Origin: a virus
IMG/VR virus record: IMGVR_UViG_3300038856_000064
Location: 96,001-160,000 of that record
Direction: 5' to 3' (one strand)
DNA length: 64,000 nt
The notes beneath the pieces are model-generated. The model ran no database searches. It was not told the DNA's origin and saw only the letters and a list, made by a program, of their open reading frames with translations. Every line of letters starts with the position of its first letter. Within the stretch, counting starts at the first letter, position 1. The position numbers and the translations under genes are program-made. Of the stretch, positions 4,188-51,628 are shown piece by piece.

Positions 4188-7100
4188 TCTAAATAATCAA
4201 TCCCATCCGATAAAGAATCTGATACGATACCCCACTGTCCGCTCATGGCCCAAACTGGTGTGTAGTGCCCTGGCATGGTATAGTCATGTGTCCTTACAAA
4301 ATCTATAAATTGAGTGCCAGATGGTACCTCTAGACTGTTCACAAGACTTTCTTGCATGTCGGCAAAATCTGTATACTCTAATATTCCACTAGTTGTATCT
4401 AGTCCAGATAGGGAATGAGTTAAGAATGCCCTGTGAATAGAGCTACCAGTTGTTGGTGTACCAGATAGTGAGATGCCGGGTAGGGTAGCTAGGTATGCTC
4501 CAGAAGTAGATCCAGATGGCAACAATAGGAATGGTCGGGCGCAACTAGTGCGGTATCCATAACTATCCAACACCTCAATCTTAATAGTATACCATCCTGG
4601 CGTATCAAAGACACGAGAAGCCTCATATAAGCCACTAAATGGAACGCCGTCAATCAGAGTACCCTTTTCCGCACCCTTAAAATCAGCAAACGTAAATCGG
4701 ACTTGGGTAATATCCTTGTCGTCTTGTGCAATTCCACTTCCGCGCACTGTCAAGGTATATGGTAACCCTGAAGTTATAGTTCCGACTACTGGAAGCTCTA
4801 GCGTGCATTCTGGTGGCTGAGTAATTCTGATGACACCCAGCTTCGCATCAAAAGAATAGATCTCTGTTTTTTCTACAGCAAGTCTAGCGTCAAAATCGCT
4901 TGAAGTCACTATTTGGAATGTTAGGGTGGCATCAAACTCATTACTTGTCTCACACGAGCCAAACATATAGTGTCCGACTAGTCCACTGACAACGTCCACA
5001 CCACGCATGAAGTGTCCAAAAATTCCACTTTGTGAATCTGCACCATGCAAAAATCCACCAACCAATCCACTAGTTATGATCTTGCCATGAATATAACCAC
5101 CATAAGTGCTGACGGTGCCAGAAACACCACTGATATGACCAGCGGTTAATGCCGTTTGTTCTCCGACACCATACATATACGCGCCTACAAGACCAGAAAC
5201 AATATTCTGCGCTAGTCCCTCAATCCACATACCAACAGTAGTGTCTTCGTTTTGTGTACCAGTATTAAAATTGTAAGAGTTCGCTGCCAAGCCCGAAATC
5301 TCTGGAAGTGTTAAAGCCCTACTAAATAACATCCAGTCATCCAGCAGACCTGAAAACGCACTACCTCCAGCAAGAGCATCTGATTCTGCATCACCCCTTC
5401 CTCCAAGAGCTAATCCAGAATTATTGATAGGAACCTCAACTAGATCAACGAATGATGTCCCCGCATATCGTCCATTTACCATCACGGCAAATTCATCATT
5501 ATCACGATCATATGTTACTGCTAGGTGGTTCCACTGTTGTGGAGCTAGGTCACCATTTTGTGCAGAGGTCGTCACGTCACCAGACGCGACTGCTATAGCC
5601 TGCAAAGAGTCTGATGGGCTATAAATCTTGACACCGGTTGGTGAAGAGTCTGGACCACTACCCTTATTAAGAATTACGTGTTCATCTGTGGCACTAACAG
5701 ATGGAGGGATTACCCATCCTAGGGCAGTCCATGATTGGGATCCAGAGCCAAGGTCTAACCTTTTAGCCTGAGAATTATTAGGTATCGTATCAAAATATTC
5801 TGTCTGACGAACAACAGCTCCGCTCTCGTGAATCGCAGGCTGAACACCTAAGCCGTGACCATCTTCATTGACTGGGAATAGATGATTTTGTTCCCTGCCA
5901 AAATCAATAGCAAATTTACCAGCTCGATCAAATCTCCAGTGGCTAATATTTGCAGGATCAGTATTAGAAACAGAATTTGTCCCTAATGTGTCATTATTAA
6001 AACCAAGACGTCCAACCTTACTTAGCTCATCATGTGATGCCCCACCCGCATATACGAACGGAGCTTGAATTAGTGTTCCGGAAGGAAATCCTTGTTGACG
6101 TCCAGCTACATTGAAAAGGCTAAAACCACTAGGTGTTGATGTATGGAGAGCATCTAGAGAAGTAAGGGAGGGGGAATATCCTACATTTCTTAAAAGGGTG
6201 GCGTCATCGACATCATCAGTATTTACGTAGAGGTTGGCAATAGTCGAGCCTCCGGATGGTCTTACGCTGGCGGCAATAAAGAACGGTGTGTCAAACGGCA
6301 CTTCTTCATTTGCAGTCACTGTATCAATAGATGAATCGCCAATTCTAACATTCAAGAATGGTATATTATCACTTATTCCTAATTGCCAAGAATTATTATC
6401 AGCCTCAGTTCCCCACGATCCCATAATGTGATGGTCGCCATATAGACCACTAGAGCCATTACCCTGAGTCTCTAAGTCGCCTGATGGAAGATACACAAAT
6501 GCACCCGCCGAAAATCCGCTAGATGACATCAATGAAGAGGTAGAGAAGTCTAGTATGGATCCCGTGAATGCGCGCTCAGTTAATACTATAGAGCCACTAA
6601 CATTAACTTGTAGCGAGTTACTGGAGACTGTGCTATTAAGTTCAGTATCAGAGACCTCTACGGCGCCACTTACATTCGTAAGGTGATGTCTATACCAACT
6701 CTGATCATTATAGCGAACACCAGAAACGCCATCCGGATCATATATAACCTCATTACTGTCATCGAAAATCCAATAACCATAAGTTTGTTTGAATGATGTA
6801 CTGAACGGTGAGATGTCAGGTTGTACAACTAGGCCACTAAGGGCAAAGCCAGACATTTCTGGTAGGGTTAATTTGCGTGAAAAGACAGCCCAATCATCAA
6901 ATAGTGGACGACTAGTAGTAGACGTATCATTAATTGCAGCCCACCCAAAGAAAGAATTAGGATCACTAAGTAACATTTCTTTGCTAAGCCCAGACTCTGC
7001 ACCGATTCGCACATCCTCTACTCTGATACGCTTCGCGTCACGGACAGAATATATGACGTTAGTCTTAAAATCAAATACCAAGCCCCACAACTGCCACGCA

Positions 7101-12156: not shown

Positions 12157-15100
12157 CTATAGTGTCGTGGGCGAAATTATGCCCCTCCTAAGGAGTTCTG
12201 TTCTTATGTTCTCTAAAACTTCATTTGCGATTCTTCGAGCTTCATCATTACTAACGAAGCCACCTAGGGATTCGGCAAGTGTCGTGGCAAGTCGCGCGAC
12301 ACCAGCTTCAAAACCAGTAACTGTTACATTCGTCTGTCCCTCGACGTTGATAGTAATTTCAGTTCCATCGCTACCTGCGACAGCGGTTGCTGTTCCAACA
12401 GTACTACCAGAAGAGTCTCGAATTGCTTCTGTCACAGCTAAGTTGCTTTCACTAGTTGTATTTAAATCCTTTAGTTGAGTCACAATATCCTCAAGACGAC
12501 GAACAGTATCATTATTTAGGTCGGAAAGATTGCCACCACCAGCGCCGGGTAATGCGCTACTAGATGCCACGGCAGTATTAACAACCGAAGGACCAGCTTG
12601 CCCCATCATCTGCTGCACCTGCGCCCTATTTCTTCCAGCCTCACGCTGAGCATCGGACAATATCTTACCATCACTCTCCGGCGTTCTGCGAGCATCTGAG
12701 CCGACCTGTGCGTTCGATACGGGAACACCACCAGAATTCATAACCTCCCGAAATGCCTCCGCTACTCTAACGCTGAAGGCATCTGGTAAGCGTGAAACAA
12801 CTGCTTCTCCGACTCGCGTAATTGCACCCGTTACGGCACTAAACCCCTGACGTTGAGTTTGCTCTTGCTGCAATAGCGTGGTATTTAATTGACCCTGTAG
12901 TTCTCCTAACTTACCTCGAAGCTTGTCGCCCTCTTCTTTAACGCGCTCAAGTTGAATCTCAGCAAGATCCTTTTGAGCCTGTGCTTGCTCTAATTGTTCT
13001 TTAGCTGCTATTACCTGTTCTTGAGAAGCAATGAGTTGTTCAGTAGCAATTTGAGCCTGCTGTTCTTGTAGACCAGCAATGCGCTCCTGAATCTCAAAGA
13101 GTGGGTCAACTTGTAGTCCCTCACCACTGACACCTAGAGAAGATGTTTCAATGGCTGTAAGCAACTGATCTGCGGTAAATCCTCCTACTTCACCACCGAC
13201 AGAACGCAACGTCTCAAGAGATGAAACAATCCTTTGTCGAGTCTCTTGTGGTAGTGCCAATAGCTGGGCACCAAGGTCATTAATAGCGCTCTCTCCGAGC
13301 TTCTTAAACTCACCAAAACTTCCACCAAGTAAGTCAGCAACGGCTCCAGCTTCCTGTATCCCGCTGAATAAATCAGCTTGGTCCTGGGTCGAACTAGTAA
13401 AGAAGTTACGAGCTAACTGTGATTGTTCCTGTAGTAGATTATTAAAGAGTGTGAGTTGCTGATTGATGGACTCTCGACGAATTTCAACTAGAGTCTTTTC
13501 GCTCGCCCCCAAGTCTCGTGCCAAACGTTCGGCAGAACGGAATGTGTCTTGTACTGCGCCGATCTCTTGACGTAGCCCACTAAAGCCACCAGTGATCTTT
13601 GTAGTCTCGACAGCAGCTAGAGATAGGCCAAGGTTGTAGCGAGTGGTTGCCATTATGGCGCCGTCCACCGCTTGTAAATAGCTCTCAAAAGCATCGCCGA
13701 CCGCAGCAGTAGCCTCTATGACTGCTCGTTGTGCATCGACCTGCTCTTGGGCATTTCCTACTAGCTCTTGGGAAACCTGCTTGATCGCCTCTCTGCGCTT
13801 CTGAATTATCTGAGCCTCAGCCTGAGCCTGCTCTAATGCAAGCGCCGCCCCACGCTTCTTGATGTCGGATAGTCGCGCCTCCTTCTCTGCCTGGTCAGTT
13901 ATCGTAGCGTTTACTACAGTAGCTTCTGCGGCTAGCTCGGCTTGAGAAACCCTGAATTCTGCACCTAGAGTATTAAGTTCAGCATTAAACTTACTCATTT
14001 CAGATTGATCTACAGAAAGTAACTTACTAATCTCGGCTAGACCAGTAATGCGCTTTTTCTCAAACTCAGCGGCGACCTTCGCAGCATTCGTAGCCTCCTT
14101 AGCCACGGACAACGTATTACGAATTGATGCAATGCGCTGCTTAGCAAGTGACTCTTCTAGCTTGATAGACTCTTGTACGCGCTCATCCTCAAGTGTCTTT
14201 AGCTGATCTAAAACACCAACACGATTTTGCTCTGTGGTCTCAATCGCATTAAGCTTCATAATTTCTGCATCTAGACCAGAAAGACGACTCTGGGATGCGG
14301 CAATGACACCATCCGCAAGGCGTGCCTCTATCTCTCTTTCTGCAACTAGACGACGAATACCCGTTAACTCCTCAGAGATGGCGCGAGCGTTAAGCGCAGT
14401 AACCTCTCGACGACGCTGATCAAGGGCAATAGTTTTTTGCTCTTCGGTTAATCTCTTCTTTAGGGCATCTACCATCGCCTTATTACTGGTTATCGTAGCC
14501 TGCAAGGCTTCTGTATCAAGCTTTGTAAATGTCTTAAGTAATCCGAGAACCCCATCAGTTACCTTCTTAATCTGCTCGTCATTTACTCCAGTAAGATCTA
14601 ATCCTCCGCGTGCATTTTGAAGTGCTGCTCGCTGAGCATCGGGGTCTATAACGCCCTCATCTGCAAGCTTTCGCCCCGTATCAAACAATGTCTTAAATAG
14701 GTCCTTTAGTGCGCCACCAGTAGTTCTTACAGCAGCATCTCTGATCTTGTTGGCATCGCTCTCGTCGATCTCAAATAGTTCAGCTAAGTCAATATTATCT
14801 AAGCCATTTAAGAAATCCTTCATATTACGACCAGAATCCTTAATACGCCGTTCGGCATCTTGAGGTATAATACCCTCTCCTAACTTAGCACGAAGAGCAT
14901 CTAGATTACCAAATTGACGTTCGCCAGGCCCGGCAATAGTCTGGAATTCTACCCTGGCCTTTTGTAAGGCATCTGATTTTTCGAGATCTGCACGACGTGT
15001 TAAAGACTTCGCCGTCTCTGACGCATGCCTAGCGAGGGCATCCGCAAGCTCAATCTGTGGAGTCGTTGCCTTTAGCCTGGTCTCGTTAAGCTTCCCTACC

Positions 15101-19433: not shown

Positions 19434-19962
19434 TTCCTAACCCCTCAAGATATATTTCGCATACAACATCCCGCCATTCACGATAGTCTCCATGGGCAAT
19501 TTTAACACCAGCAATCTGGGCTAGGTCCAAAAATGGCAGCAAGGAATCAACAATATCGTCTAAACCGGCACAGGTATATACTTTCTTATACACTATTCCA
19601 GCACCAACACTGTTACGGATTTTATTCAGAAGATTAAAATCACCAAATATGCGGAATACTGGTATCACATCATCCTCCTCGATAACATCCACCTCAGCAT
19701 CTCCTAATGCCTTGATAATATCTCGGCTAAATGATACTTTTCCAGGAGGAGAATCAGCAACTAGCTGAGTTAATGAGCGAGTAGTATCCCCGGCGGCGTT
19801 AAGAATCTCGCTACGGGCAATTTTTAGATCCGCGCCCGTCAAAACGACCTCCTCCTCGTCTTTTAGATCTCCCAAGTCGCACTGAATCGTATGCTCAATA
19901 CACGCCAAGATACGAACAGCCATTCCACGCAATCTTTTTTGGATTACCTTATCAAACTCCAT
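19426..19962 (-). CDS. Hypothetical protein
   Basis: 178-aa ORF with GGAG RBS. Confidence 0.7.
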   Translation of the reverse strand: MEFDKVIQKRLRGMAVRILACIEHTIQCDLGDLKDEEEVVLTGADLKIARSEILNAAGDTTRSLTQLVADSPPGKVSFSRDIIKALGDAEVDVIEEDDVIPVFRIFGDFNLLNKIRNSVGAGIVYKKVYTCAGLDDIVDSLLPFLDLAQIAGVKIAHGDYREWRDVVCEIYLEGLGNE

Positions 19963-19970
19963 TTTATCTC

Positions 19971-21275
19971 CTAACTGGGTCTAGCCCTACCTTTTTTATC
20001 TTTCGTAAATTCACCTGGTCCGTAATACTTCGTATCTAGACCTAGCGCACTACGGGCCTTATCACCACGCAAGCGCTGCTCCTCCATACCATCTACCCCA
20101 ACACTCGCAAGATGTTTCTGTTCACTTGCAAGCAATTTGCGTACTCTATCTGGATTAGTGGATTGTATTTCCTCTACCTTCTCACTCTTTGTTTTTTCAT
20201 CATAATAGAGGAATACTCCATAAGAACAACTAGGTGGATGAATATGTCCACGTTTATCATGACCGCGAGACTCTGCCTCTTCTAGGATGCCGCATGTGCA
20301 TTCCTGACAATATTCGCCCATAACATTAAAGCCCACCTCGTTGGCGCCAGATTTTTTATCAAGCCTATTGAGCTTCTTATCAAACTCTGACTTCTTTCTC
20401 TCTTGCTCGCGCTTCTTATGCTGTTCCTCTAGCCAACGGTCGAACAACTTGTCATCTTCGATAACGTCATCAGATGGTGCCTCCATAGACTCAAAAGCGG
20501 AGTCATACACTTGGGACCAATATACTAATCTGAACTGATCCAATGTTAAGTCAAACATCTCTCGATCAAATAATGTCCTGACGCCGCGATTCTTTTTGGA
20601 TGCCATCCACTTACATCGCCAAAATCCAGAACGCGCGATACGGCGAATTGATGCCTCATCTGCAATAGATTCATTATAGTAAGTGCGCAGTAATCTGACC
20701 ACTAACCCCGTATCTTGCTCTCTATTCAGATCATCTAGAGTATTCCATACCTGATTCATTTCTGGAAAAGATAACGTCGCACATTTTAGAAAGTAATTGC
20801 CACGTTCGCATTCAGCGGCATATTCTACGCTCGGCAATTCTATATGCTCAGTATATATCTTTTCTAGTAGTCCGATAGACTCAGAAATATGGAATGCTTT
20901 TGTGTTTAGTTTCTTAAACCTTGAGGTGGGCCTTAGTCGCTTTTTCCTACCCTTACTATCAAGCATTTTCGTTTTTTCTTCTAACGACCGCTCCTCAGTA
21001 ATAACAATAAGCTCTTTACGTAATGACTCTAGGTCGCTATCATAATGAACTCGCCACATGCCTGCATGAATAGCATGCTTTTTAAGTTCATCACGGGTCA
21101 TAAGGGTTGAGGTATCCATAAAGTGCTTATGGATATAATTACCAATATTCTTTTCTTCTAATGTAAGTGGACGAAAAACAAATGTTTTCATCTCTCCATT
21201 ATTATCCTTAACCTCTATTATTCTGCGACCCCAGGTCACTGCATCTAGAAGCTCCCCAATATCCTGCTCTTTCAT
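19971..21275 (-). CDS. Putative tail assembly protein
   Basis: Start moved to ATG 21275 (MKEQDIG, GAGAGGA RBS) because the track start lies inside a terminator. Confidence 0.6.
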   Translation of the reverse strand: MKEQDIGELLDAVTWGRRIIEVKDNNGEMKTFVFRPLTLEEKNIGNYIHKHFMDTSTLMTRDELKKHAIHAGMWRVHYDSDLESLRKELIVITEERSLEEKTKMLDSKGRKKRLRPTSRFKKLNTKAFHISESIGLLEKIYTEHIELPSVEYAAECERGNYFLKCATLSFPEMNQVWNTLDDLNREQDTGLVVRLLRTYYNESIADEASIRRIARSGFWRCKWMASKKNRGVRTLFDREMFDLTLDQFRLVYWSQVYDSAFESMEAPSDDVIEDDKLFDRWLEEQHKKREQERKKSEFDKKLNRLDKKSGANEVGFNVMGEYCQECTCGILEEAESRGHDKRGHIHPPSCSYGVFLYYDEKTKSEKVEEIQSTNPDRVRKLLASEQKHLASVGVDGMEEQRLRGDKARSALGLDTKYYGPGEFTKDKKGRARPS

Positions 21276-27424: not shown

Positions 27425-28954
27425 TTATCGAATAATAAATTCCCACCTCTGCTTTGGTGGAACTATAACCTTAATAAGACCCAGAGAATTCGCATAATTT
27501 GACTCAGACTGGCCAGCAGGAACTCTACACTTACTTTTGTGATATTCGTTACCCTCTTGATCGATATAGATATAATCGGACCTCATTTTATTATCAACTA
27601 GAATAAAATTACAGGCTTTATAGAGGGTGCCGCCATGATGGCGAGGGTCGTGCCAACTTACTACCTTACCGCGATAACCTGTCTTCTTTAACCATCTTAA
27701 GGACCTGGCAACCATCCATGAGGTCGTATTATTGTATGGGTGCGGCAATCTAACTCTGTCAAAAATAGCGCAACGATTGAGACAAACCGACTTTTCATGA
27801 GGATTGGCGACACCGCCAAATGTCACGACACCACAAAGTATATCGTTATAGTAAAACCCAAGACGATGCTTGTCACGTCCAGACGCCGACTTGAGATAAT
27901 GTACGCGACGCAGAAAATCGTCTGCTATAACCTTATTTATTTCCCTAACCTCAAATCTATAGTTATGCTTTATTCGTAAGCAAAGCTTATCCAATACATC
28001 ATCCTTGCTGGTCAATATTATGTAGTTGAATTGATTGTCTTTATAGTATTGAATTTTCTCGGCAAACTTATCTGGCCGCTTGCGCGACTCACCAAGACCG
28101 TCATACTCGACCCATAGATCTTGATTTGGTAAGTAAAAGTCACAAGTCCATTTACGATCTTCACAAACCCTCTTATGCGGTTCGTAATCAATAAAATTCT
28201 GGTACAACAAATCAGCCAATCGCTTCTCTTCTATGGAGTCATAAAATGTATTATCATTACCTAGTTGCCTTTTATCGACATCGATATTAGCCAACTCAAG
28301 TATTTCCTTCCAGCTCTTGTTTGGGAAACGCTTATAATAACACGAATTATTAATATTCTGATTAGAAGATAACTCCTCGTGTTTTAAACGACCTAGTAAC
28401 TCATTGTCTGTTTTCTTAACGCCAGATCGTGATACCTCAAGCCCCGCCTCCCTCAATGCATTTGGCCAACTACCGAATTTTCTACGTATTGTTTCAGCAC
28501 TATACAATGTATTCGCCTGTTTATATTTTTCAATAGTTAGTATTCCGTCACACTCCTTCGATGCACTTATTAGAGCTTCAACTAATTCCTTTTTTGTTGA
28601 GCCATATACCCTATTTGGCTTAATCCCAGCAATTTGAAGTCCCTTAACCCAACTACCGAAATGCCTTTCTACTGCCGTAAGCTTTACCCCTCCCTCTACC
28701 CTAAATAAGTCTGAATTATTGCTACCAGTTTTATCATAGAAGTCTCTAATGGCTTGTATTACCTCCTCATCTGTATAATTTTTTCTAGATGTAGGTAACC
28801 CTGCCTCTACCACAGCATTATTCCAACTACCAAACTCTTTATTCACTATGAAGCGACTATATTTAGTATCAGCTTCATCATATAGCTTTCGAGTAATTTT
28901 ACCATGCTGACTAAAAACACCTTTAATGTCCGATATTATTTCTTGTTTACTCAT
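27425..28954 (-). CDS. Free-standing homing-endonuclease-like protein: FGSW repeats + PD-(D/E)XK/Vsr-like nuclease + Mom-like GNAT domain
   Basis: Repeats FGSWNNAVVEAGL / FGSWVKGLQIAGI / FGSWPNALREAGL; DFYLPNQDLWVEYDG; ADDFLRRVHYL...LCGVVTFG...HGGTLYKACNF; AT-rich. Confidence 0.7.
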   Translation of the reverse strand: MSKQEIISDIKGVFSQHGKITRKLYDEADTKYSRFIVNKEFGSWNNAVVEAGLPTSRKNYTDEEVIQAIRDFYDKTGSNNSDLFRVEGGVKLTAVERHFGSWVKGLQIAGIKPNRVYGSTKKELVEALISASKECDGILTIEKYKQANTLYSAETIRRKFGSWPNALREAGLEVSRSGVKKTDNELLGRLKHEELSSNQNINNSCYYKRFPNKSWKEILELANIDVDKRQLGNDNTFYDSIEEKRLADLLYQNFIDYEPHKRVCEDRKWTCDFYLPNQDLWVEYDGLGESRKRPDKFAEKIQYYKDNQFNYIILTSKDDVLDKLCLRIKHNYRFEVREINKVIADDFLRRVHYLKSASGRDKHRLGFYYNDILCGVVTFGGVANPHEKSVCLNRCAIFDRVRLPHPYNNTTSWMVARSLRWLKKTGYRGKVVSWHDPRHHGGTLYKACNFILVDNKMRSDYIYIDQEGNEYHKSKCRVPAGQSESNYANSLGLIKVIVPPKQRWEFIIR

Positions 28955-35560: not shown

Positions 35561-35760
35561 TTGATGGGACGTTCTACCTTCCATCCATCAGGATAACGCT
35601 CATCCCATTCTCTTTTTAGGCGATCTGATTGTTCTCTTGAGTAGATGATGGCTCTTTTAACCGGCTCACTCTCCGGATGTGGCGGCAACTTATTTCTCGC
35701 GCACAACAAATAACACTCAAGAATGTATGGATAATTTGGCTCGCTGTCTGCATTCATCAA
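35557..35760 (-). CDS. Hypothetical protein
   Basis: 67 aa between terminase and portal. Confidence 0.55.
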   Translation of the reverse strand: MMNADSEPNYPYILECYLLCARNKLPPHPESEPVKRAIIYSREQSDRLKREWDERYPDGWKVERPIN

Positions 35761-38700
35761 TAAATAACTCCTCCCTTTCGATTCATGGGGGTGTACCCCA
35801 TCCCTCGACGCGGGGCATTCTTCAAAATATCTTGTGGTGTCCCACCGTAGGCTTTACCCCAAGATTTCTCATGTCCGTGTCCCTTAATAACTCTGGCTGC
35901 ATGTGCGGCAAGTAGTAAGGCACTATAACGATCTCGACGACGGACATCTAGCCCATCAGGCTGATCACTCAATTTCTGTAATCCAAAACCTTCTGTACCC
36001 TTCTCTGTTACCGTCTGGACAATCGTGCATAATTCATTAGTAAGCTCTTGCATTTCTTTATAGGCACCTAAAGTAATAGGATCTCCATCATCATTTTCCG
36101 TACCATAGAGAAGGTTGTTAATATGCTCGACACACGCGATATGTTCATTATCCTCATAATCAAATTCGGGCACGTCTAATAGTCTTTTTGCATGCTTTTC
36201 CATCACAATATCATCGTCGAGACGTCCAGGAAATATGACATTTTTCATAATAAAGTCACGCTTTAAATTATGATTTGCTGGAACAGCCCAGGTATGGAAG
36301 TTGACCATTTCAAGGATGCGGCGAGCATTTGGGATTGCCTTATAATCATCGCTTGGCTCAATTTCAATAATCGGCTGCTCGCCCTCCCTTAAGTATTTGG
36401 CGCTGGCTAACATTTCTTGAACGGTGTCGCCGCCACCACCTTTATCGCAAGCTATATAAGTAATGTTGGGGAACCTAGCTAATGCATCCTTAATACGATC
36501 AATACTCACTTCCCATTTAGACTTATTCCAACTATCACAATAAACCACTTGGGCTGTTGTACCCACAAGCTTAAGGATGACTAAGCCGAAATTGTCATTC
36601 CAACGAGCAGGGTCGAGTCCCATAACATACTGAAACCCCGGTTCGCCAAACAGTTCATAATGAAATTCCTCAGGGTTTCCTTTACCTGGAGAGGCTGCAT
36701 CAATAATAGAACGTGGGAAAAATCCATTAGTGTCTTTGCTAAATTTACATTCATATTCATGTCCAAAAATAACTGGATCCATAATTGCCTTATGGTTTGC
36801 TACGATATCACTATCTAAGAACCCCTCGGGCATTGCGTGATATGGTAAACTAAATACGGCATACTCGTGCCAAATCTTTTTCCAACGCTCCAGCATCTCA
36901 TCCGTAACACTTATAGTGCCGTCACGACTCTGGCGACGTAACCCCTCTTTGATGACCTGGGGATTCCCATTAGACTTAGCAAAAATATTATAAGCCTCGT
37001 AACGACGAAAGAAGTGACTAAACTGATAGGTCGCAGTTCCTGATAATACTAGTTGGTTACCTCCACCTCGGCGCTCTTCTTCGATCTTGCCTATAATCTC
37101 TTCGTTCGCACCAAGCTTGCGTAAACGCGCTATAAACTCTTGGACAATGACAGCTTCTGAGGGGTCAGCCTTAACAGAAAGGAACGGACCAATTGCTGTG
37201 TCGAATACCTGATCATCAATAGACGCAACTTCATCACAAACCAGAGTAGTATTATGATTCTTTATACCATTCCCGATAAAAGAATGTGACTCTGGAATTT
37301 CAAAATCATAAAGAATATGCTTGCCATCTAGCTTTTCAACACTCCTTATAACCTTTTCTGTTTTTTCTTTACAAAACCTAATATCTAAATCTGCCTTTTT
37401 GTATACCTCAACAAAACGACTTGGTCGAATGGTATTAATAAACTTCATCATCTGCACACCGTTAATACGTAGCATGTATTGCGGATGATCACTTAACTTA
37501 CTTGACCTACTCGTCCTACTACACATAATACCTAGCTTTAGTAATAGAACCTGAACATCCTTTCCTAGTTGCTCACTAGCGGTGTAATAAGAAATTCCTA
37601 AATTGTTTTCTCTAGTCTTATCCTTATATAGATAGGCAGTCCCATCTCCATCAAATAATCCAGTTAGGAATGAAATAACCTCATCTCTTGAACCATTCAA
37701 AATCGCAGCAGGAATCTTTTTAAATCGTGCAGTAGAATAACCTAGGCCGATTTCACTCTCTAGCCATTGACGTTGTTTCAGATTACCAAAATGAATTTCA
37801 TACGACGGTTTGCTTGTCCACCCCCTAGGGTCTTCTCGTGGCGGACAATAATACCTACTAGCTTTGCCAAATTTATCTATTGCAATTTGCTCAACTCTAT
37901 CACAGAATTCTCCTACAGCATTCTTAACAGAAATTCTATACTTATTAGAGCAACATCCTTCAGAAATTACAGCCCCAAGCAACCAAGCTAGATCTACTCC
38001 AAGTTTTTCTTCACTATTAAACTTACCGCCCAACTCTAGTGGCAAAAAATCCTTACTTGGTTGTAGCTTAACAGCATCCTTCCACCCCTTAGTTGTCCAC
38101 AAACGATGAATATCAGAACATACAACCTCATATCCACATTCTGTTGTTATTTTATACGCATCGATAGGACATGTCTTAACGAATTTACTAGGTGCAGCAA
38201 ACTTACCATTACCATAATGAAGTGTTATATCTTCAGGATTATCGACTATGTCTTTAATTCTACGCAAGCCATTATTAGTTTCTACTATAGTTGTTGGCTC
38301 TACGCATGCACGCATTCCTCGGACCTTAGAGCCATCTCCTACGGGAATTCCGGTGATCTCAGTATTATGCCCAACCTTCAAATAAACCTTATCAGTAGCA
38401 AATTTAACACCAAAACTATTACCTGGATGAAACTTGCGGATCGTCTCCTCAATAATTGGACTACTCTTAATAATCTCATCAATATACTGAAAAGTAAACT
38501 TAGCCTGACGAAAACCACCAGAGACGATCACTACCTTTGTCCCTGGAACAAGAAGGCATTTCAAAATACAATAAACCGCAAGCATATATGTTTTGCCAGC
38601 CCCACGACAAGCTAACACCATAGGAAACTTCTTTGCCCACATCATCTGAAGCATCACACTTTGGAAAGGTAATAATCGAAGTGGATCGCCGAACTTATTC

Positions 38701-38840
38701 CGAAATACAAGCTCAACAAATTTAGTCAGACTAATATCGGACACACGATTAACTATATACGGATATTCTTTTTGGTCGTGTATATAGAGACTGTCACGAA
38801 TTTTAGTTTCGTCAGTAATTATTTTAGTTTGGACAGACAT
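35757..38840 (-). CDS. terL: Terminase large subunit (intein-containing)
   Basis: Walker A ACRGAGKT, Walker B LVCDE, nuclease YVMGLDPARWND and DRYSAL. Confidence 0.92.
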   Translation of the reverse strand: MSVQTKIITDETKIRDSLYIHDQKEYPYIVNRVSDISLTKFVELVFRNKFGDPLRLLPFQSVMLQMMWAKKFPMVLACRGAGKTYMLAVYCILKCLLVPGTKVVIVSGGFRQAKFTFQYIDEIIKSSPIIEETIRKFHPGNSFGVKFATDKVYLKVGHNTEITGIPVGDGSKVRGMRACVEPTTIVETNNGLRRIKDIVDNPEDITLHYGNGKFAAPSKFVKTCPIDAYKITTECGYEVVCSDIHRLWTTKGWKDAVKLQPSKDFLPLELGGKFNSEEKLGVDLAWLLGAVISEGCCSNKYRISVKNAVGEFCDRVEQIAIDKFGKASRYYCPPREDPRGWTSKPSYEIHFGNLKQRQWLESEIGLGYSTARFKKIPAAILNGSRDEVISFLTGLFDGDGTAYLYKDKTRENNLGISYYTASEQLGKDVQVLLLKLGIMCSRTSRSSKLSDHPQYMLRINGVQMMKFINTIRPSRFVEVYKKADLDIRFCKEKTEKVIRSVEKLDGKHILYDFEIPESHSFIGNGIKNHNTTLVCDEVASIDDQVFDTAIGPFLSVKADPSEAVIVQEFIARLRKLGANEEIIGKIEEERRGGGNQLVLSGTATYQFSHFFRRYEAYNIFAKSNGNPQVIKEGLRRQSRDGTISVTDEMLERWKKIWHEYAVFSLPYHAMPEGFLDSDIVANHKAIMDPVIFGHEYECKFSKDTNGFFPRSIIDAASPGKGNPEEFHYELFGEPGFQYVMGLDPARWNDNFGLVILKLVGTTAQVVYCDSWNKSKWEVSIDRIKDALARFPNITYIACDKGGGGDTVQEMLASAKYLREGEQPIIEIEPSDDYKAIPNARRILEMVNFHTWAVPANHNLKRDFIMKNVIFPGRLDDDIVMEKHAKRLLDVPEFDYEDNEHIACVEHINNLLYGTENDDGDPITLGAYKEMQELTNELCTIVQTVTEKGTEGFGLQKLSDQPDGLDVRRRDRYSALLLAAHAARVIKGHGHEKSWGKAYGGTPQDILKNAPRRGMGYTPMNRKGGVIY
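37251..38306 (-). mobile_element. Intein with LAGLIDADG endonuclease (352 aa)
   Basis: RA|CVEPTTIVET...; block B CSDIHRLWT; LLGAVISEG and FLTGLFDGDG; ends YDFEIPESHSFIGNGIKNHN|T. Confidence 0.93.
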
Positions 38841-45668: not shown

Positions 45669-46112
45669 ATGGCAACGGCAACACAAATCAATCTGACCGA
45701 GGCGTTCGACGCGAAGCGCGATGCGTACGCAGTCAGACAAGGCGCGTTCGTCCTAACAGGCGATGTCGTCCTAATCGGCGATGCGCTCGAAACGTGGCAA
45801 TTCATCCGCGGTCTAGGCGGTCGGACGTTCCGCGTAGTCTACGTCTGTAAGGATGGCACGGTCCGAGACTTGATCGGACGACAAGGCGTTCACGACAGCG
45901 AACAAGACGGAGCGGTGCAGGGTATCGGTCACGCGATGACAGACCCGAACCGTCTCAATCTGAGCTTTTGGACCTACGCTCACGGGAAAAAGGTCAACAC
46001 CGGATCGGGCAAGGGATACCGCACCTTGCGCGCGGCTGGCATTCTCGCGATTCGATGCGAAGGTCACGACATTCTGACCCAAGCGGGATACGATGCAATC
46101 CGAGGCAACTAG
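45669..46112 (+). CDS. WYL-like/SH3 beta-barrel phage protein
   Basis: TFRVVYVCKDGTVRDL...SFW...GYRTL. Confidence 0.55.
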   Translation: MATATQINLTEAFDAKRDAYAVRQGAFVLTGDVVLIGDALETWQFIRGLGGRTFRVVYVCKDGTVRDLIGRQGVHDSEQDGAVQGIGHAMTDPNRLNLSFWTYAHGKKVNTGSGKGYRTLRAAGILAIRCEGHDILTQAGYDAIRGN

Positions 46113-46890: not shown

Positions 46891-47028
46891 CAGGATCGGA
46901 AAGAATCTTCGATTCTCCCCGATCCTTTTGTACGCTCGCAGATTGGCACAGCCAATCCGCTCGCGCATGCCGCCACATATAGCAAAAGACTTTGACTTCT
47001 CATATCGGGATTACCTATAGCCTTTCGT

Positions 47029-47424: not shown

Positions 47425-47546
47425 TCCGGACATCTAGAGATGCGCGCGGAACACCGCGCCCTCTCGGGCTTGCGGGCGACATATCGGGCGAATATTTGAC
47501 TTCTAAAATTGACTACTAGCAGGTTTTGTGATATCCTTTCACTGAA

Positions 47547-48275: not shown

Positions 48276-48308
48276 AGCCTCGGGGAGAAGGGACCCCTGG
48301 GGCTTTTT
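48276..48308 (+). terminator. Terminator
   Basis: AGCCTCGGGG/CCCCTGGGGCT + T run. Confidence 0.7.
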
Positions 48309-48404
48309 GTGTACAGCGCGACAACTCGCGCTTGCCTCCGACATATCGCGAAAGTATTTGACTGCTAAATTTGACTTCTGGGGAAGTTTGTGATACACTT
48401 AGAT

Positions 48405-48776
48405 ATGGAAAAGCTCACAGCGCAAAACGTCGCGGACATCGCCTATCGCTACTATGCGAATGGTGGAAAATCTGGACACACTCCGGGAGACCGTTCGCCT
48501 GATGGGTGCACGTATTTCCGCTCCGATGGCGGTCGGTGTGCGATCGGTGCGGTACTGGATCACTTGGGGTATACTAAAAAGGATCTGGGCGATCACAATG
48601 AGCTGACTACGGTCTCGATGCTTTTCGACGAACTACCCGGTATCCGCGAAAAATTCAGTTGCGATGTCGAATTTCTGGAAAGTCTCCAGCGAGCGCACGA
48701 CGGATCAGAACGCGACGATGAAATTCCGGAACGAATCCGCTGGACTTGTCGCGATCACGGAGTATACTTGAGATAA
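48405..48776 (+). CDS. Hypothetical phage protein, leaderless
   Basis: TTGACT-N17-TACACT at 48371-48399; CTY...RCAIG...LQRAHD. Confidence 0.7.
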   Translation: MEKLTAQNVADIAYRYYANGGKSGHTPGDRSPDGCTYFRSDGGRCAIGAVLDHLGYTKKDLGDHNELTTVSMLFDELPGIREKFSCDVEFLESLQRAHDGSERDDEIPERIRWTCRDHGVYLR

Positions 48777-48824
48777 CTTCAAAGCACCTAGAGGCGGAAC
48801 TAGGCTAAATCCGCATTTCTTTTA

Positions 48825-48937
48825 GGGGTAGATAGGTTTTTGACATCTAGAATACGGTTTGGATACCAGCCGCGAAAAGCCCAACGCAAAAACGCGGTTT
48901 GTCTAGATGGACCCGAGTTCAATTCTCGGCTACTCCA
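48825..48937 (+). ncRNA. Mini-tmRNA 1 (tRNA-like domain only, 113 nt)
   Basis: Acceptor GGGGUAG/CUACUCC-A with G3.U70; stemless D-loop AUAGGUUUUUGA; helix CAUCUAGA/UCUAGAUG; GAC linker; T-arm CCGAG-UUCAAUU-CUCGG. Confidence 0.85.
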
Positions 48938-48944
48938 TAAATTC

Positions 48945-49047
48945 GTTAGAGCGCGACATATTGGAATAGTAAGGTTCGCACAAACTTACTAGGACAATGG
49001 TGCGGGGCGGTGTGCGCCGCAAGTAGGTTCGATTCCTACCTCTAACA
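48945..49047 (+). ncRNA. tRNA-like RNA with acceptor stem and T-arm but non-tRNA core
   Basis: GUUAGAG/CUCUAAC-A; T-arm GUAGG-UUCGAUU-CCUAC; internal hairpin UAGUAAG/CUUACUA. Confidence 0.75.
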
Positions 49048-49059
49048 TAAATTCGGGAA

Positions 49060-49155
49060 GTGTTGAAATAACGACTAGTGGTACCAACCGCTATGGTGTA
49101 AAGTCTTATAAGGGCTGAGCACACCCGAAACTTCTTACACGTTAGCTGTCAACAC
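49060..49155 (+). ncRNA. Structured RNA element of unknown class
   Basis: Closing stems GUGUUGA/UCAACAC and UAACG/CGUUA enclosing further hairpins. Confidence 0.5.
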
Positions 49156-49163
49156 AATTTGAG

Positions 49164-49215
49164 AGCCCTGACCCGAGTAGCTTAGAAATAGGCTTCTGGA
49201 GTTAGGGCTTTTTTT
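49164..49215 (+). terminator. Terminator of first RNA cluster
   Basis: AGCCCTGAC/GTTAGGGCT + T run. Confidence 0.75.
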
Positions 49216-49362
49216 ATCTGATACACCCGAGCCTCTCGGGCATGCTTCCGACATATCGAGAAAAGGTTTGACTTTCTGACACCTAGATAAGAAGTGAGAG
49301 TATACTTTCAACATGACCGAACACAGGAACTCATCGACGAACTGTGGTGAGTGGAATTCAGC

Positions 49363-49390
49363 TTGACAACTAGAACAACTAGGGTATACT
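49363..49390 (+). promoter_or_regulatory. Sigma70-like promoter for second RNA cluster
   Basis: TTGACA-N16-TATACT; followed by 15-codon ORF MRKIKAPTGRRKRAR (49396-49443). Confidence 0.8.
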
Positions 49391-49480
49391 TCTCCATGCG
49401 AAAGATCAAAGCGCCTACTGGCCGTAGGAAAAGGGCGCGATAACATAAATACCTCCTATGCGGCATACCGGGTTTCCGGT

Positions 49481-49529
49481 ACCCCGACGAAAAGAGTAGC
49501 CAGATATATCGGGGTTTGATAACTCTGGC
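49481..49529 (+). ncRNA. H-type pseudoknot
   Basis: ACCCCGA(49481)/UCGGGGU(49509) interleaved with GCCAGA(49499)/UCUGGC(49524). Confidence 0.55.
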
Positions 49530-49534
49530 AATAA

Positions 49535-49602
49535 GGGAGTGACAGGTTTAGGCAACTAGTGAATACTATGTTGTAACGTGGGTTCGATTCCCACCACTTC
49601 CA
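49535..49602 (+). ncRNA. Mini-tmRNA 2 (tRNA-like domain only, 68 nt)
   Basis: GGGAGUG/CACUUCC-A with G3.U70; D-loop ACAGGUUUAG; helix GCAAC-UAGU/ACUA-U-GUUGU; AAC linker; T-arm GUGGG-UUCGAUU-CCCAC. Confidence 0.85.
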
Positions 49603-49682
49603 TAAAGCCCTAGGTGGACGCAAGTCGCATACTAGGTTGATACTGCCGGTTTGGGTTATACCGGAGGAAGGTTCAACCTAGG

Positions 49683-49731
49683 GTGGTAACCTTGACCGGA
49701 CCAAGCTAGATGGTCAAAATAACCACTTTTT
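49683..49731 (+). terminator. Terminator-like hairpin ending second RNA cluster
   Basis: GTGGT..TTGACC/GGTCAA..ACCAC + TTTTT. Confidence 0.55.
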
Positions 49732-49917
49732 ACCTCAGGTGATACACCCGATCCTCTCTGCCATGCCGCGCGCATATCGCAACTATATCAGACACCTCCT
49801 CCCCTCCTCAAGTATATCGCAACCCTGGAGAAAAGTCAAGTATTATTTTGAGAACATCTAGGTGCTTTTCCACCCTGCTTTTCTTGCCATCTTCGACAAG
49901 TCATGTATACTTAGGGC

Positions 49918-50196
49918 ATGAGCAAGAACAACACGAACATCGGGAAGTTTCTCACCGATCTGGCAAGCAAGGCATCTCCGCTGAACGCGCAAGCTATCGC
50001 GGACTTGCAAGACAAGATGCGCGCAGAGAAGGTAGTGGAATTGGAGCGCAGGATCCGTCACGTTCTGAAATGCATCAACACCGAAGTCACCGAACTGCGT
50101 ACCCTCCGCAAGCGTGAGGCGGAGACCAAAAAGCGCATCAAGGATTTGGAGAAGCTCGCGAACGACATCGTCACCGGAAAGGACATCGACGACTAG
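49918..50196 (+). CDS. Coiled-coil early protein, leaderless
   Basis: TTGCCA-N16-TATACT at 49884-49911; 92 aa. Confidence 0.75.
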   Translation: MSKNNTNIGKFLTDLASKASPLNAQAIADLQDKMRAEKVVELERRIRHVLKCINTEVTELRTLRKREAETKKRIKDLEKLANDIVTGKDIDD

Positions 50197-50198
50197 CC

Positions 50199-50261
50199 TG
50201 TTATACTGACGAGATCCGGGCAAAAGGATCGAAACTAGGCATAGCCTAGTCTATAATGCCT
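50199..50261 (+). ncRNA. Hammerhead ribozyme, type I
   Basis: Stem I UGUUAUA/UAUAAUG, core CUGACGA, stem II GAUCC/GGAUC, GAAA, stem III CUAGGC/GCCUAG, GUC site at 50249-50251. Confidence 0.92.
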
Positions 50262-50398
50262 ATAAAATGGGGGTTTGACCAAGTGCTAAGTGCCAAAATG
50301 GTTGAATCCCGTGCCAGTGACATTATCGTTCAATAGTGTCCAGTGCAAAAGCAGACAACTAGAGTCTCGGGTGCCAGTCACCTGAGGCTCTTTCGTTT
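50252..50398 (+). ncRNA. Putative ribozyme-released small RNA with repeated GUGC motifs
   Basis: Three hairpins, GUGC at 50283, 50290, 50311, 50343, 50371; last hairpin is terminator-like. Confidence 0.55.
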
Positions 50399-50715
50399 AT
50401 ACACCGAAACAACTCGCGCTTGCCTGCCAAACATATTTTATATCAGCGAGACTCGCCCCTCCTAAGTATATCATAAGATAGGGGAATGTCAAGAACAACT
50501 AGAATAAATATTAGCACGATACCCTACCGCGCACGTACGCGCGAATATCACAAGATCCGCAATTTGTCAAGCTCGTAAGAGATATTTTCTCAGAATGATT
50601 TCTAGGTGATTTTGGATCCATTCACTTGCTTTTCGTTCGAACTAGGGTATATTGATTGTGGCTAGCGCAACGGAGCGCATAAGCAAACACAAAACCCGAA
50701 CACGAGGATACAAGA

Positions 50716-51305: not shown

Positions 51306-51322
51306 GTGTGGTATACTTAGGT

Positions 51323-51628
51323 ATGCAAACGACAACTAGACAACGGACCGTATCGCGAATCGGCTTACACCGCGCGACGCAATTCCTCTGGAATGAAACG
51401 CAAGGGCTGATCTTTTCGTGCTACTTTCGCAAGAAGGACGGCACGATGCGCGAGATGGTCTGCCGACGCGGTGTCAAAAAGCATTTACGCGGCGGATCGC
51501 TCCCCTACGACGCAAAGGCAAACAATCTACTGCCAGTGTTCGATATGACTCTCGGCGAGTACCGAACGGTAAATCTCGCCACTCTGGTTTCCTTCAATTT
51601 CGGTGACGAAACTTTCGTTGTAATGTAG
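51323..51628 (+). CDS. WYL-like/SH3 beta-barrel phage protein, leaderless
   Basis: FSCYFRKKDGTMREM...VFDMTLGEYRTVNL; extended -10 TATACT at 51312. Confidence 0.65.
   Translation: MQTTTRQRTVSRIGLHRATQFLWNETQGLIFSCYFRKKDGTMREMVCRRGVKKHLRGGSLPYDAKANNLLPVFDMTLGEYRTVNLATLVSFNFGDETFVVM

Follow-up and report, generated by a model that had tools for sequence, protein, structure and literature searches.

Alanyl-tRNA synthetase (AlaRS) is directed to transfer-messenger RNA (tmRNA) by the G3.U70 pair of the acceptor stem and the discriminator base A73, SmpB binds tmRNA at the elbow of the D-loop and T-loop and at helix 2a, and EF-Tu brings the charged complex to ribosomes whose A site is empty. Besides complete tmRNAs, forms are known that are reduced to the tRNA-like domain (TLD) and have no coding sequence (CDS-less or TLD-only tmRNAs). 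Here we describe e1, very probably a phage gene for such an RNA, at 48825-48937 on the plus strand of a 64,000-nt stretch of viral DNA (the window), which covers positions 96001-160000 of the 175,148-bp, 82%-complete IMG/VR virus record IMGVR_UViG_3300038856_000064. A preliminary description of the stretch had named mycobacteriophage DS6A and some mitochondria as precedents for this class, and both are found in the literature (PMC4131195, PMC11915505).

The RNA of DS6A is designated 'TLD only' by Hudson, Lau and Williams (2014) and is the sole phage example in the literature (PMC4131195). It corresponds to tmID 11587 of the tmRNA Website (Mao et al. 2009, as cited in PMC4131195 and PMC11915505). 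An artificial TLD of a similar kind is a strong inhibitor of tmRNA both when it can be charged and when it cannot, perhaps because it titrates SmpB (PMC4131195), and the tmRNA database paper of 2025 states that endogenous E. coli tmRNA is inhibited by the DS6A form (PMC11915505). We located the DS6A gene at 28478-28560 of JN698994 (83 nt as matched), where it scores 43.2 bits on the Rfam tmRNA model RF00023. Both DS6A RNA and e1 are phage-borne and combine a full TLD, with G3.U70, A73, an open D-loop, helix 2a and a T-arm, with the lack of a tag frame and of pseudoknots. However, the DS6A RNA has an interior of only 20 nt, a total length of 80 nt and an actinobacterial host, whereas e1 is 113 nt long, carries a conserved 50-nt insert of two hairpins and belongs to an unrelated phage lineage of ~175 kb from sediment and soil metagenomes, with two diverged paralogues adjoining it. 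Sequence similarity between the two RNAs is limited to the TLD core.

In comparison to bacterial tmRNA (ssrA, RF00023), the TLD and helix 2a of e1 correspond nearly position for position and the expected partners are the same (AlaRS, SmpB and EF-Tu), but the resume codon, tag open reading frame (ORF), helix 5 and PK1-PK4, about 300 positions in all, are missing and there is no template for tagging. The CDS-less tmRNAs of mitochondria (jakobid and other, RF02544) and of two plastids, among them the ~65-nt form of Mallomonadaceae plastids, show the same reduction to the TLD and have SmpB as the presumed partner (PMC11915505). These are the only tmRNA of their organelle or cell and arose by reductive evolution, whereas e1 would be a viral accessory beside a full-length host tmRNA. 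Full-length or two-piece tmRNAs of phages (Bxz1-like mycobacteriophages, Bacillus phage G and the OM43 phage Melnitz; PMC4131195, PMC9004378) resemble e1 in being phage derivatives of ssrA with early expression, which for e1 is predicted. These RNAs still have the tag ORF, and extra rescue capacity is their presumed role, in contrast to e1, which has no tag ORF and is more likely a competitor.

Anatomy and conservation of e1

The features of e1 are as follows.

48825-48937, plus strand: mini-tmRNA e1, 113 nt from G1 to the discriminator A73, read as a TLD-only (CDS-less) tmRNA
48825-48831 and 48930-48936, plus strand: acceptor stem GGGGUAG/CUACUCC, 7 bp with G1-C72, G2-C71 and G3.U70, read from the sequence
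48832-48843, plus strand: D-loop equivalent AUAGGUUUUUGA, 12 nt with GG, unpaired according to RNAalifold
48844-48851 and 48902-48909, plus strand: helix 2a, CAUCUAGA/UCUAGAUG, 8 bp
48852-48901, plus strand: insert in place of the mRNA-like domain, 50 nt
48856-48867, plus strand: insert hairpin 1, GGU/ACC
48870-48897, plus strand: insert hairpin 2, CCGCG/CGCGG with an A-rich loop of 18 nt
48910-48912, plus strand: GAC linker, read from the sequence
48913-48929, plus strand: T-arm CCGAG-UUCAAUU-CUCGG, 5 bp with a 7-nt loop of the UUCRANU type
48937, plus strand: discriminator A73, read from the sequence

The coordinates and the anatomy given in the preliminary description (G1-C72, G2-C71, G3.U70, A73, the D-loop, the 8-bp helix 2a, GAC, the T-arm and the 50-nt insert) proved exact on re-reading of the sequence. 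A UAA follows A73 directly, so CCA is not encoded, again as described. When constrained to the tmRNA-like fold, e1 has a folding energy of -37.2 kcal/mol against -37.3 kcal/mol for its minimum free energy structure, so the fold comes at no energy cost, and the z-score against shuffled sequences is -3.1.

Direct scoring of e1 on RF00023 gave 52.2 bits (E = 7e-21), above the gathering score of 47, in an alignment which covers model positions 1-374 with ~300 interior positions deleted. By comparison, the sole ordinary tRNA of the phage that registers on this model reaches 14.6 bits and ordinary tRNA-type matches from other phages stay at or below ~25 bits. Together with the covariation of nine orthologues and the comparison to DS6A, this score bears out the proposal that e1 is the TLD of a tmRNA with its tag-coding domain replaced. 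Of the search suggested earlier with the tmRNA and the mitochondrial tmRNA models, the first part was thus positive and the second negative, as RF02544 has no match at E <= 1 anywhere in the phage. An ordinary degenerate tRNA, named earlier as an alternative, is not what we find: e1 has no match to the tRNA model RF00005 at E <= 1, while the same model finds the phage tRNAs at 38-68 bits; ARAGORN called no tRNA at e1 even at relaxed thresholds; and with neither a D-stem nor an anticodon arm there is no tRNA cloverleaf.

With default filters, cmscan returned nothing at the gathering threshold in the window, and a scan of 48300-49800 by E-value returned the paralogue e3 (see below), not e1. This omission is presumably a filter artefact of the ~300-position deletion. 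e1 surfaced only by direct scoring of the candidate and by R1, a covariance model which we built from the 10-sequence alignment described below, on which e1 scores 106.9 bits and all background matches are at or below 9 bits. The two-piece tmRNA model RF04321 gave 17.9 bits at the locus against a cut-off of 47. ARAGORN proposed a permuted tmRNA ('tmRNA*') at 48848-49276 with the tag AEHTRNFLHVSCQHNLRALTRVA. We rejected this call, which re-uses the T-arm of e1: with GGAAUAG as the proposed 5' strand, position 3 would pair as A3-U70 and not as G3.U70, alongside an A.C mismatch, and the tag has no counterpart in related phages.

Nine orthologues of e1 were identified, two in related phages and seven on metagenome contigs. 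A search with the portal protein led to four related phage contigs, and the two large ones carry one 117-nt orthologue each, located by portal-protein synteny and Rfam. One is the complete, 176-kb phage G002 with terminal repeats (72.3 bits on RF00023) and the other is the 82-kb contig G003 (68.4 bits). The seven metagenome orthologues were retrieved with a family pattern consisting of the 5' half and helix 2a, in which the 3' end was not imposed; for nine of the ten aligned sequences the search left U70 free. In the comparison of e1 with G003 the similarity begins exactly at G1 (48825), and the early region shares with G003, at the nucleotide level, only two coding segments, a repeated intergenic motif and e1. 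Beyond these, blastn of 48300-50000 against 50,697 phage records gave no match, and no relatives were found in IMG/VR via the GP88-like protein or the exact pattern of the e1 3' end.

De novo folding of the alignment of e1 and its nine orthologues (A2) with RNAalifold recovered the acceptor stem, the open D-loop, helix 2a, the two insert hairpins and the T-arm. In our structure of 28 pairs, 94.6% of the pair cells are paired, versus 41-51% when the partners are slid, and 11 of the 28 pairs show compensatory changes; none of 500 shuffles scored as high in covariation. In all ten members the acceptor stem, helix 2a and the T-stem are 100% paired. Compensatory changes occur at pairs 5 and 6 of the acceptor stem, at two of the eight pairs of helix 2a and at four of the five pairs of the T-stem. 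G3.U70 and A73 are invariant in the ten members, as are the GG and UUU of the D-loop, which fits the Rfam tmRNA consensus GA..GG.UU.GAC. The layout of the insert as two hairpins is also kept in 10/10 members, with compensatory changes in both stems.

The preliminary description had seen neither a pseudoknot nor a clear tag ORF in e1, and the alignment agrees on both. In the consensus fold the insert consists of two simple hairpins, and there is no PK1 or other pseudoknot; by-eye candidates for a loop-loop pseudoknot or kissing interaction within the insert exist in some members of A2 but are broken in others, and were rejected. No resume codon, tag ORF and in-frame stop could be defined, as no frame with a fixed resume codon is conserved among the ten members and an indel in the A-run shifts the frame in three of them.

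CCA is encoded in nine of the ten family members, e1 being the exception. However, none of the 16 tRNA genes that ARAGORN calls in the phage is followed by CCA, and the phage encodes, outside the window, a 465-aa nucleotidyltransferase with an HD domain (L115:585-1982; G000:C1:164584-165981) whose best matches are multifunctional CCA addition/repair enzymes, although its 196 bits on NF008137 lie under the full-length cut-off of that model. For these two reasons the missing CCA of e1 is no sign of decay, and the enzyme suits a phage whose mini-tmRNAs, like its tRNA genes, have no encoded CCA. The orthologues also carry transcription signals of their own. In G003 a perfect TTGACA-17-TATACT ends 9 nt before G1 and an intrinsic terminator lies ~60 nt after CCA; two metagenome orthologues have TTGACT-17-TATACT or TATAAT ending 7-11 nt before G1, and two others have an intrinsic terminator downstream. 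Since the model scores, the shared fold with its covariation, the invariant G3.U70 and these promoters and terminators all point the same way, e1 is very probably a real, functional phage gene for a TLD-only tmRNA.

Paralogues, transcription unit and phage context

Two further RNAs that resemble e1 lie downstream of it, and the surroundings of the three contain the following features.

48741-48768, plus strand: sigma-70-like promoter candidate TGGACT-16-TATACT, 9/12 matches, at the end of the upstream ORF
48938-48944, plus strand: spacer UAAAUUC between e1 and e2, with the identical 7 nt after e2 at 49048-49054
48945-49047, plus strand: tRNA-like RNA e2, with a 7-bp acceptor stem GUUAGAG/CUCUAAC-A, no G3.U70 and a canonical T-arm
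49055-49160, plus strand: third structured RNA of the e1-e2 unit, -30.9 kcal/mol, z = -2.2, not tRNA-like, source of the spurious ARAGORN tag
49161-49218, plus strand: intrinsic terminator closing the e1-e2 unit, a hairpin of -29 kcal/mol (z = -5.7) followed by U7
49363-49390, plus strand: strong promoter candidate of the e3 unit, TTGACA-16-TATACT, 11/12 matches
49535-49602, plus strand: mini-tmRNA e3, 68 nt with G3.U70 and A73, in a unit of its own

e3 scores 42.1 bits on RF00023 and 49.6 bits on R1 (E = 9e-11); on the tRNA model RF00005 it reaches 23.4 bits, under the cut-off of 29. The 43.2 bits of DS6A lie between the RF00023 scores of e3 and e1, so both RNAs match the standard set by the published example. 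In the R1 alignment e3 keeps the helix 2a sequence of the family (CAACUAG/CUA-U-GUUG) under a hexaloop cap, and is therefore read as a deletion paralogue of e1 in which the two hairpins were lost. It retains G3.U70 and A73 though the adjacent pair 4-69 became A-U. e2 is more remote, with a marginal 16.4 bits on R1 (E = 0.016) and 15.2 bits on RF00005. The alignment of its interior with the 5' half of the e1 family suggests that e2 is probably a remodelled paralogue that may have taken on a new acceptor identity. The related phages G002 and G003 have a single e1-type gene each and no counterpart of e3.

From the promoter candidate at 48741-48768 transcription is predicted to start near 48775, with a leader of ~50 nt before G1. 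Judged by its sequence, e1 is the first RNA of a polycistronic non-coding RNA (ncRNA) unit in this phage, which consists of e1, e2, the third RNA and the predicted terminator, and the UAAAUUC spacer is presumed to serve as 3'-trailer and processing site. Promoter-like sites are enriched in the region (12 observed vs 2.3 expected). The repeated intergenic motif mentioned above (ACACCCGAGCCTCTCGGGCATGC...CATATCG type) occurs in the window at 46948-46987, 47451-47486, 49217-49258, 49740-49821 and 50396-50442; copies lie after terminators and before promoters and are 75-85% identical with G003. For a hammerhead ribozyme proposed at 50199-50261, Rfam gave no hammerhead match at E <= 1 in 49600-50500 and none at the gathering threshold in the window, although a divergent form may have been missed.

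The phage is tailed and comes from a sediment metagenome; the stretch is present in runs of one sediment-metagenome study, no RNA run being among them. The minus strand carries its terminase, portal and head genes up to ~43 kb, after which small plus-strand genes of early type follow. The terminase large subunit (35757-38840, minus strand) is split by an intein with a LAGLIDADG homing-endonuclease domain. This phage and both relatives encode conserved proteins with WYL_2 (an Sm-like SH3 barrel) a few genes downstream of the mini-tmRNA, in approximate synteny (51308-51628 and 45669-46112 in the window, L009:221-559(-) and L008:328-657(-) in the relatives), with a coiled-coil protein before each.

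Pfam models found neither SmpB nor peptidyl-tRNA hydrolase in the phage record, of which 82% is present; any SmpB partner of e1 would therefore be that of the host. A truncated homologue of RF1 (195 aa; L114:335-922, G000:C1:3634-4221) is encoded outside the window, inside the tRNA region of the phage and far from e1. It matches RF1 residues ~158-335 with 186 bits and keeps GGQ and the region of the codon-recognition loop, reads SPT in place of the PxT of RF1, and has no N-terminal half. The complete relative G002 also encodes such a protein (G002:C1:3156-3473), and the homologues of the two phages range from 195 to 204 aa. An unrelated mini-tmRNA phage of 99% completeness does not encode it. 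From its sequence the protein could be a codon-independent release factor or one of altered specificity.

Mini-tmRNAs in other viruses and in prokaryote assemblies

We took a census of mini-tmRNAs with strict degenerate TLD patterns in IMG/VR and in prokaryote assemblies. IMG/VR holds five further minis of 89-109 nt, of which the four that were scored reach 58-71 bits on RF00023, and 71 contigs with minis of 63-86 nt, which represent 49 distinct sequences. The total in viral contigs comes to 54 further distinct minis at 76 loci. In their T-stems, 215 of the 216 cells that the patterns left unconstrained are paired, by ~30 different stem sequences, and tRNA genes are nearby at just 13 of the 76 loci. 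No relatives of the portal protein were found in the other mini-bearing contigs, and the minis therefore sit in unrelated elements.

The prokaryote assemblies gave four matches. The 49-kb contig CAMZDX010000002.1 (G011:C2) of a metagenome-assembled genome (MAG) contains a full-length tmRNA and two minis of ~110 nt (6709-7050, 12849-12960 and 19939-20051, respectively), and an Uhrbacteria MAG (G009) of the Candidate Phyla Radiation (CPR) contains a full-length tmRNA and a 108-nt mini on a 175-kb contig. Minis thus coexist with complete ssrA genes.

Mini-tmRNAs are poorly served by the standard tools, as ARAGORN either misses them or makes false tmRNA calls. False full-length or permuted calls with implausible tags lie over minis in six other contigs (L044, L045, L047, L055, L079 and L102). 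They anchor on the 3' end of the mini-tmRNA and are a systematic annotation artefact. As a kind, the phage TLD-only RNA is not new: it is already published, and is common yet unannotated in phages. The e1 family with its conserved extra domain is a new family of ten members in this known but barely studied class.

Possible roles of e1 in the infected cell

The explanation that we favour overall, with a probability of roughly 0.55, is that e1 is a functional, tag-less gene whose RNA competes with the tmRNA of the host. Early transcription from a sigma-70-type promoter would yield e1 as the leading RNA of its small polycistronic ncRNA unit. Maturation would involve RNase P at G1, trimming of the 3' end past A73 and addition of CCA by the host enzyme or by the CCA-adding-type enzyme of the phage. 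The AlaRS of the host may then charge e1 with alanine through G3.U70 and A73, and the D-loop, the T-loop elbow and helix 2a would offer a surface for binding of SmpB. With no resume codon, no tag frame and no pseudoknot ring, e1 cannot complete trans-translation. It would instead be a rival of host tmRNA for SmpB, EF-Tu and stalled ribosomes, and this competition would lower ssrA tagging, with the linked proteolysis and decay of nonstop mRNAs, during infection. For the specific mechanism of an alanylated competitor we put the chances at about even. A sponge for SmpB and EF-Tu, or an RNA that enters stalled ribosomes and does not tag, had been proposed in the preliminary description, and both remain inferences.

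Several observations weigh against this explanation. Since the artificial TLD was inhibitory in both its chargeable and its unchargeable form (PMC4131195), pure titration of SmpB would need no charging. The strict retention of G3.U70, A73 and CCA therefore suggests that entry into the ribosome is needed, which would suit a rescue of ribosomes without tagging equally well. The conserved 50-nt insert of two hairpins has no role in a pure decoy model. The promoter candidate of e1 in the window matches at just 9 of 12 positions. Finally, the 5' motif of the family was found in 185,579 genomes only as one coincidental match to a full-length Bacteroidales tmRNA, and no host could be assigned.

Rescue without tagging is the alternative that survives best, though we consider it unlikely. 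Alanyl-e1 would enter, with SmpB and EF-Tu, ribosomes stalled on broken mRNAs, which are plentiful when a phage degrades the mRNA of its host, and would accept the nascent chain; a codon-independent factor might then hydrolyse the peptidyl-alanyl-RNA, so that ribosomes are recycled and proteins are left unmarked. The strictly kept features for charging and ribosome entry speak for it, as does the conservation of mitochondrial CDS-less tmRNAs alongside SmpB, where they are thought to help with incomplete mRNAs (PMC11915505), and the truncated RF1 homologue with its GGQ in this phage and in G002 would be a candidate for the hydrolase. However, this protein is a trait of the lineage that is absent from the unrelated mini-bearing phage and is encoded distant from e1, no peptidyl-tRNA hydrolase was found in the phage, and the sole experiment with a TLD-only RNA gave inhibition and not rescue (PMC4131195, PMC11915505). 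A wider rewiring by the phage appears doubtful: alanylated e1 and e3 would take the nascent chains, the truncated RF1-like factor would free them, either without a tag or, for the e1 family, with a vestigial tag of ~6 residues, and e2 would act with another partner.

It is rather improbable that e1 works outside trans-translation, either as bait for defence proteins directed at tRNA or tmRNA, or as RNase P/RNase Z punctuation of an early ncRNA. The identical UAAAUUC spacers which join e1, e2 and the third RNA in one promoter-terminator unit are suggestive of such a processing module, and e2, which keeps the acceptor stem and T-arm but not G3.U70, indicates that alanine identity is dispensable in some copy. 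Defence systems with SmpB-like domains and predicted RNA targeting have been described (PMC10542128), and the proteins baited might be nucleases or helicases with SmpB-like OB folds. Nothing, however, ties any defence system to e1. Moreover, several orthologues are monocistronic with a promoter and terminator of their own and are thus not mere punctuation, and an invariant G3.U70, a D-loop of tmRNA type or helix 2a would be superfluous in a processing signal.

That e1 is a minimal working tmRNA seems very improbable. The 3' half of the insert would in that case hold a vestigial frame x-K-T-(R/G/Q)-(F/L)-(A/V) running to a UAG in the 3' strand of helix 2a. As read from A2, 10/10 members have a frame of six or more codons that ends at this UAG, and that of e1 starts with GCA; natural tags of 2 aa also exist (PMC11915505). 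The loop preceding the frame is A-rich. The region before the resume codon is A-rich in E. coli tmRNA as well. Against such a frame, an A-run of five versus six A puts GCA out of frame in three members, and all amino-acid changes in it are explained by covariation of the stems. The frame also lies inside two helices and ~8 bp from the TLD, much shorter than the helix 2/PK1 spacer of working tmRNAs, and e3 and the minis of 63-86 nt are too short for any frame.

Least credible of all is non-functional DNA, whether a pseudogene in decay, derived from tRNA-Ala or ssrA, or an attachment-site (attP) fragment of host ssrA. In favour of this reading, no family member is more diverged than e1, with 52 bits on RF00023 where the two phage orthologues reach 68-72, and e1 alone in the family has no encoded CCA. 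Against it, every helix is intact with changes that are compensatory and not random, there is no D-stem, anticodon arm or tRNA-model match, and the loss of CCA parallels the tRNA genes of the phage itself. The attachment-site fragment, which the preliminary description had also put forward, was rejected, with no search made for an integrase, since the 5' and 3' halves of the TLD are both present, unlike in an att fragment, and orthologues carry their own promoter and terminator.

Trans-translation is the main pathway of ribosome rescue and quality control in bacteria and a drug target, and a TLD-only RNA would be a natural inhibitor or bypass of it. Published knowledge of such RNAs in phages consists of the single example DS6A, and our census shows that the kind is widespread. 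The three diverged paralogues in one locus, together with the CCA-adding-type enzyme and the truncated RF1 of the phage, may provide a natural series in which the features of the TLD, the need for charging and the benefit to the phage can be tested.

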